The notes under the pieces were generated by a model, which was given only the letters and a program-made list of their open reading frames with translations, was not told the origin of the DNA and ran no database searches. A DNA stretch of 64,000 bases from Escherichia coli (lineage in GTDB: Bacteria > Pseudomonadota > Gammaproteobacteria > Enterobacterales > Enterobacteriaceae). The stretch lies in assembly GCF_030013595.1 (NCBI RefSeq), contig NZ_CP122768.1; one strand, given 5' to 3'. Of this stretch, positions 19,976 to 20,362 are shown piece by piece (position 1 is the first letter of the stretch; every line of letters starts with the position of its first letter). Position numbers and translations under genes: made by a program.

Positions 19976-20362
19976 TTAACGATACTTCTGGTGATAGGCG
20001 TTGCGGGTCGTTTTCAGTTGCTCTGCGGCAGCCTGCGCTTCTTTTACTTTACCTTCATTTGCCAGCTTCAGCGCGTCGTCAATCTGACCGACCAGAATAT
20101 CGAAACCGTGGCGGAAGTCTTTCATTTCCGGGCTGTCCGGTGATTTGCCTTCGAGCTTCGGCGGCGTCGCTTTTTGCGCATCCAGCGCTGCGGCGCGCAT
20201 CTTCGTTAACGCGTCTTTGACTTGCGCCGCGTTATCGGCTTTTTCGACCACTTTTAAATTGTCGTTGAGGGTTTCCATATTGTCTTCAAGATCAGCGGCA
20301 AACGACGCCGAACTGAATACCAACGAGGAGACTGCAAGAATAGCTAACAGGCTTTTACGCAT
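19976..20362 (-). CDS. cybC: Soluble cytochrome b562 precursor, full length (128 aa)
   Basis: ORF track; signal peptide plus four-helix-bundle sequence ending NAYHQKYR. Confidence 0.9.

Follow-up and report, generated by a model that had tools for sequence, protein, structure and literature searches.

Intact cybC and a neighbouring, probably ancestral relBE cassette in an apparently non-K-12, non-B lineage of Escherichia coli

The stretch of Escherichia coli DNA analysed here (64 kb in full, hereafter the window) carries at positions 19976-20362 what its sequence marks as an ordinary, functional cybC, the gene for the soluble periplasmic cytochrome b562, and its intactness is the norm of the species. 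The K-12 lineage is the exception. Next to cybC lies a toxin-antitoxin (TA) cassette of the relBE type, probably an old locus that has been lost in most E. coli, and the source strain would belong to neither the K-12 nor the B lineage. We hold this reading as a whole with considerable confidence. The features on which it is built are collected in Table 1.

The cybC open reading frame runs on the minus strand from an ATG through 128 codons to a TAA stop, and fills the above interval exactly. Its product covers the entire Pfam profile Cytochrom_B562 (PF07361; E 5.8e-34, 117.2 bits against a cut-off of 30) and scores 193.7 bits with the NCBIfam equivalog for cytochrome b562 (NF011632, cut-off 130). 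In an alignment with PDB entries 1apc, 256b and 1qpu, residues 23-128 cover the crystallised mature protein over its full 106 residues. The axial haem ligands of the mature chain, Met7 and His102, are retained as M29 and H124 of the precursor. The N-terminal extension of 22 residues reads as MRK, a hydrophobic core and SFA, and is followed by ADLEDN. As the mature PDB chains begin at residue 23, we infer that the first 22 residues form a signal peptide, with cleavage predicted after residue 22. The pre-protein would be exported by means of this Sec signal peptide, which is then removed, and the resulting 106-residue four-helix bundle would take up one b-type haem via Met7 and His102 in the periplasm. 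The first-pass annotation had described a 128-residue frame with an intact signal peptide and a complete cytochrome b562 sequence, which the open reading frame, the two profile searches and the structural alignment bear out.

The same protein, WP_001232246.1, is encoded by strains HCP5S3_I2 and ST70; it differs at two positions from that of REL606 (E. coli B), namely I17V and D50G in mature numbering. These two substitutions could be taken to mean that the intact frame is non-functional in the source strain, for instance through silencing or a disabling change, and a consensus promoter scan gave no sigma-70 match upstream of cybC or relB. However, the scan is a crude consensus match, and cybC has an unchanged upstream region in REL606, in which the gene is highly expressed. 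Full length and haem ligands are conserved, and many genomes carry the same allele. We consider a non-functional cybC highly improbable.

In K-12 MG1655, pairwise alignment reveals the absence of 26 bp, comprising the heptamer GTGAGCA directly in front of the start codon, the ATG, and the 16 bases that follow it. Together with the start, cybC thereby loses six signal-peptide codons. The gene is b4236 in NC_000913.3, where it is marked as a pseudogene. It had been claimed earlier that K-12 carries only a truncated cybC and that the window has a non-K-12 background. The first claim is correct: the comparison with a K-12 reference, which had been named as the check, showed an arrangement that is not intact, with the ATG deleted. 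The second is supported by this truncation and by an identity between K-12 and the window of only about 96-98% (~97.6%) over ~4 kb. The K-12 pseudogene is already documented, and the gene families of the window are all well known. A cybC knockout serves as a pseudogene control (PMC6945024), and cybC is listed among the genes with high expression in REL606 compared to MG1655 (PMC3446290). In PGAP records of K-12, the remnant is called as a 121-residue "cytochrome b562" coding sequence starting from an ATT codon (2011-2376 of the extracted locus). This disagreement with NC_000913.3 could mislead presence/absence surveys.

To follow the distribution of the two alleles, 5,426 complete genomes of E. 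coli were searched. The K-12 junction, queried as a 38-mer across the deletion, is present in 355 of them. Among the 60 listed, an even sample of the ranking, every genome bears a K-12-type laboratory name or serotype O16:H48, the names including MG1655, BW25113, DH5alpha, DH1, C600, J53, MC4100 and TG1. The intact start, searched as a 40-mer, is present in at least 4,610 of the 5,426 genomes (at least 85%), a lower bound, as the search requires an exact 28-base word. The other extracted cybC genes, including those of REL606, ATCC 25922, O157, ST70 and O8:H28, all have the full 128 codons except one, in a single genome, which is interrupted by ISEc22. Because at least 4,610 genomes share the intact start, the intact gene is uninformative about strain background: it says "not K-12" and nothing further, and is unusable as a background marker. 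The pseudogene is a peculiarity of the K-12 lineage, in which one deletion took away the start codon, the bases just ahead of it and six signal-peptide codons.

The first-pass annotation had gone further and read the intact cybC, the TA cassette and the IS1 content together as marks of a B-like or Shigella-like strain. The cybC of E. coli B is indeed intact and well expressed, but the start of the gene is likewise preserved in at least 85% of the species' genomes, and REL606 has neither the cassette between nrdG and cybC nor chpBS between ppa and ytfP, both of which are present in the window. Alignment with REL606, the B reference that had been proposed as a check, gave a different gene content and ~97.5% identity (~42 kb) where near-identity had been expected. 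REL606 is no nearer to the window than B2, O157 or O8:H28 strains; over 30-42 kb the identities are ~97.4% for ATCC 25922, ~97.0% for O157, ~97.5% for O8:H28 and ~98.2% for O7:H15 ST70. The closest complete genome, at 99.98% identity (15 mismatches in ~63 kb), is that of E. coli HCP5S3_I2, a UK isolate from pig faeces. An IS1 is present, as the B-like or Shigella-like reading had stressed, but only as a single copy in 64 kb (one IS1 terminal repeat found), and the IS1-bearing query segment finds only about four further matches in HCP5S3_I2. The B-like background is refuted, and we give the combined marker reading almost no credence. Since the closest match is an almost identical pig commensal and IS elements are few, we infer that a Shigella-like background is very unlikely. 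Judged by these alignments, the source is a non-K-12, non-B E. coli lineage, with O7:H15 ST70 and O166:H15 as its nearest named relatives.

Two further features distinguish the genomes compared. The chpB/chpS TA pair at 30733-31328, between ppa and ytfP, is common to the window, O157, ST70 and O8:H28. REL606 lacks it, and ATCC 25922 has esiB in its place, which makes the pair a second TA presence/absence polymorphism of the window. A complete IS1 (768 bp, 40863-41630) is the sole structural difference from HCP5S3_I2. It stands for 1,240 bp of that genome, which contain a frameshifted pseudogene resembling ytfI, along with the 3' portion of ytfJ. No target-site duplication was found at this IS1 in the alignment to HCP5S3_I2, which fits an IS1-associated adjacent deletion of the 1,240 bp.

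Table 1 Features of the nrdG-cybC-pmbA interval, in window coordinates.
Feature	Position	Strand	Basis
nrdG, left-hand limit of the variable interval; converges on relE and cybC	18797..19261	+	called/annotated gene
708-bp block: relBE, control region and cybC hairpin	19258..19965	.	alignments to genomes without the block
relE-family toxin gene, 96 aa	19262..19552	-	RelE structure alignment, TIGR02385, Pfam ParE_toxin
relB-family antitoxin gene, 80 aa	19542..19784	-	Pfam RelB, NCBIfam NF008412
Palindromic TGTAATGCAT/ATGCATTACA repeats around TATAAT upstream of relB	19809..19841	-	inverted-repeat detection
Terminator-like hairpin right after the cybC stop, TTGGGCGGT...ACCGCCCAA	19943..19968	-	inverted-repeat detection
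cybC, intact 128-aa precursor of soluble periplasmic cytochrome b562	19976..20362	-	ORF, Pfam, NCBIfam, PDB alignment
Signal-peptide part of cybC, 22 codons, predicted cleavage after SFA	20297..20362	-	PDB mature start at residue 23
26-bp segment deleted in the K-12 lineage	20344..20369	-	alignment with K-12 MG1655
Imperfect palindromic dispersed repeat, ~126 bp, in the cybC-pmbA spacer	20382..20507	.	inverted arms
pmbA (tldE), right boundary of the interval	20545..21897	-	called/annotated gene

The cassette between cybC and nrdG is, by sequence comparison, an intact relBE paralogue. The antitoxin (annotated as WP_000212715.1) matches Pfam RelB with E 1.3e-14 and the equivalog NF008412 with 126.8 bits. 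Residues 1-94 of the toxin align with E. coli RelE (4V7K/4FXE) without gaps at E 2e-35, and all five catalytic and RNA-binding residues, K52, K54, R61, R81 and Y87, are kept. The toxin also scores 29.9 bits with TIGR02385, just over the cut-off of 27.9, and matches Pfam ParE_toxin. The upstream relB and the downstream relE overlap by 11 bp and form one operon, and the stop codon of relE abuts that of the convergent nrdG. By analogy with relBE operators, the palindromes upstream of relB are a candidate autoregulated TA promoter/operator. We postulate that the toxin acts as a RelE-like ribosome-dependent mRNA endonuclease, and that the antitoxin acts as a RelB-like repressor.

Alignments to genomes without the cassette delimit a block of 708 bp, which includes the relBE genes, their control region and the hairpin behind cybC. 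In K-12, REL606, O157 and ATCC 25922, a stretch of ~40 bp with a different hairpin is found instead. The hairpin of the window is kept in E. albertii, E. whittamii and other Escherichia lineages, whereas that of K-12 and B differs. Cassette DNA occurs in 454 of the 5,426 E. coli genomes (~8%), is complete in 391, and is always chromosomal, at no more than two places per genome. The exact toxin protein is found only in the context yjgA-pmbA-cybC-relB-relE-nrdG-nrdD among the places shown. Decayed alleles are found as well. In one, the toxin is lost by a 283-bp deletion and only the antitoxin is left (e.g. Z1323HEC0399 and O145 strains); in another, from a lineage whose cassette is ~9% diverged, the toxin is frameshifted and the antitoxin deleted. 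A literature search for cybC, nrdG and the antitoxin named together returned nothing relevant on the E. coli cassette.

This patchy presence would be expected of a mobile insertion that entered repeatedly at the nrdG/cybC junction as an integration hot spot, in which case the cassette would not be an ancestral locus undergoing loss. Relatives of relBE are common on conjugative plasmids, and the cassette occurs together with either form of the cybC-pmbA spacer, and likewise with either form of the nrdD-nrdG spacer. However, homologous recombination through flanking DNA explains the patchiness equally well, and the junctions are the same in all carriers. Neither flanking direct repeats, nor a target duplication, nor an integrase was found around the cassette in the alignments and the annotated or called genes. 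Across the 5,426 genomes no cassette DNA was found at any other site, and none of their plasmids gave a match. The relatives in the plasmid collection are just 60-80% identical, apart from one match of 99.4%, which is a 4.9-Mb record and evidently a mislabelled chromosome. At 60-80% identity, a recent plasmid origin of the cassette was rejected. Furthermore, diverged copies, namely those of the ~9% diverged lineage, of E. albertii and of E. whittamii, occupy this position within flanks that are diverged to a similar degree, and a homologue abuts nrdG in Salmonella arizonae and in a Citrobacter. Taken together, we regard recurrent mobile insertion as unlikely.

The relatives outside E. coli came from a scan for CybC with one genome per species, in which the recovered loci were examined by tblastn and alignment. 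The cybC/nrdG junction retains remains of the cassette in several Escherichia lineages: relB is mostly deleted and relE frameshifted in E. albertii, relE is broken in E. whittamii, and Escherichia sp. E1V33 has the antitoxin only. E. coli E69 carries relE with a 2-bp deletion. The junction of Escherichia sp. MOD1-EC7003 is clean, having no cassette, with a hairpin of the window type kept. In S. enterica subsp. arizonae, homologues of RelB (88%) and RelE (72%) abut nrdG in the same orientation, and ~1.7 kb of other genes separates cybC from relB. In Citrobacter sp. NCU1, homologues (RelB 90%, RelE 65%) also abut nrdG. Most Citrobacter and Salmonella loci ended before nrdG within the flank, so that the outgroups amount to a handful of genomes, and E. 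fergusonii and E. marmotae are not named among the recovered loci.

Because remains lie at the same junction in Escherichia and homologues lie at nrdG in arizonae and Citrobacter, relBE is read as ancestral at the cybC/nrdG junction, and the arrangement of K-12 and B probably as a derived loss, by parsimony over few outgroups. In Escherichia and related genera, the cassette would be an old resident of this junction; in most E. coli, K-12 and B included, the short hairpin would have taken its place, and other lineages keep decayed copies. Repeated transfer of the cassette together with its flanks by homologous recombination would be expected to give a similar picture. As a separate observation, the E. 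coli-labelled genome SCPM-O-B-7615 (1036-2340 of the extracted locus) has a cybC 90% identical and a relBE remnant ~91% identical to the window, which suggests that the lineage diverged deeply or that the segment was imported.

The first-pass annotation had also named the nrdG-cybC-pmbA interval as a site of recurrent rearrangement. The part of this that stands is the existence of several structural alleles; the cassette itself looks ancestral and not like a strain-specific gain. Apart from the K-12 deletion, the relBE alleles and the ISEc22 insertion in cybC, the cybC-pmbA spacer varies, measuring 182 bp with the ~126-bp repeat and 54 bp in a short allele without it. This repeat resembles elements of the ERIC/IRU kind. 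It is dispersed, and the median genome has 3 copies; in ~1,546 genomes the matches reach 60-80% only, and these genomes are read as lacking the element at the cybC-pmbA locus. The relBE and spacer alleles are seen in all combinations, which points to recombination. The interval is polymorphic by ordinary processes, that is, gain and loss of repeats, TA decay, IS hits and homologous exchange. Given 5,426 genomes, this variety of alleles is unremarkable, and a "hot spot" is not established.

A similar dimorphism was observed on the far side of nrdG. The nrdD-nrdG spacer (18613-18796) exists either as a non-REP form with a CCCTCTCCC...GGGAGAGGG hairpin, found in the window, O8:H28 and most relBE carriers, or as a REP/BIME array of varying length, found in K-12, REL606, ST70 and O157. 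The N-terminus of nrdG varies with the spacer allele, as MNFHQ or MNYHQ.

Across lineages, the cassette is encountered with the toxin deleted, with the toxin frameshifted, with the antitoxin deleted, and replaced as a whole by the hairpin. One could see in this an ancestral enterobacterial TA locus beside nrdG that is caught in many independent stages of decay and is possibly coupled to nrdG, a proposal to which we assign a low probability. Where the cassette is intact, relE and nrdG converge with no terminator in between, and on this proposal each could disturb the other's transcription, which could couple TA expression to anaerobic ribonucleotide reduction. As a mildly useful by-product, the locus beside nrdG offers a natural series of TA decay alleles. 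The case also serves as a warning that a cassette absent from K-12 need not be a recent insertion.

Elsewhere in the window, a decayed element of the IS200/IS605 family lies at ~51330-52970 inside a TetR/AcrR regulator gene, according to the annotation of HCP5S3_I2; its insQ/tnpB has an internal stop and its tnpA is frameshifted. The most diverged stretch of the window contains a gene for a hypothetical protein of 555 residues at the position of yjgL (2030-3697), with 90% identity to O157 and 94% to ST70, compared to ~98% elsewhere. The length of this gene differs between strains, and it is frameshifted in O8:H28.

Among known systems, the closest counterpart of the gene in the window is the soluble cytochrome b562 of E. 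coli (CybC; 256B/1QPU), with which it has gene, locus, signal peptide and Met7/His102 in common, and from which the fusion partner BRIL is derived. Compared to the protein of REL606, the two changes in the window are conservative. The K-12 pseudogene b4236 occupies the orthologous locus, from pmbA/tldE to nrdG as in the window, and differs from it by the additional A100S/Q103K allele, which is also seen in O157. The pair beside nrdG resembles K-12 relBE (RelE 4FXE, 4V7J/K; RelB) in the order of antitoxin and toxin, the overlapping genes and the upstream palindromes. In contrast to K-12 relBE, it is a paralogue at another chromosomal site, which is missing from K-12 and B. In Salmonella, STM4449-STM4450 would, by the order of locus tags, be the pair adjacent to nrdG in LT2. 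STM4449-STM4450 appears in the literature as a relEB-type TA module, among others in a retracted paper (PMC3868539) that is used here for its gene list alone, and the arizonae pair abuts nrdG in the same way as relBE of the window.
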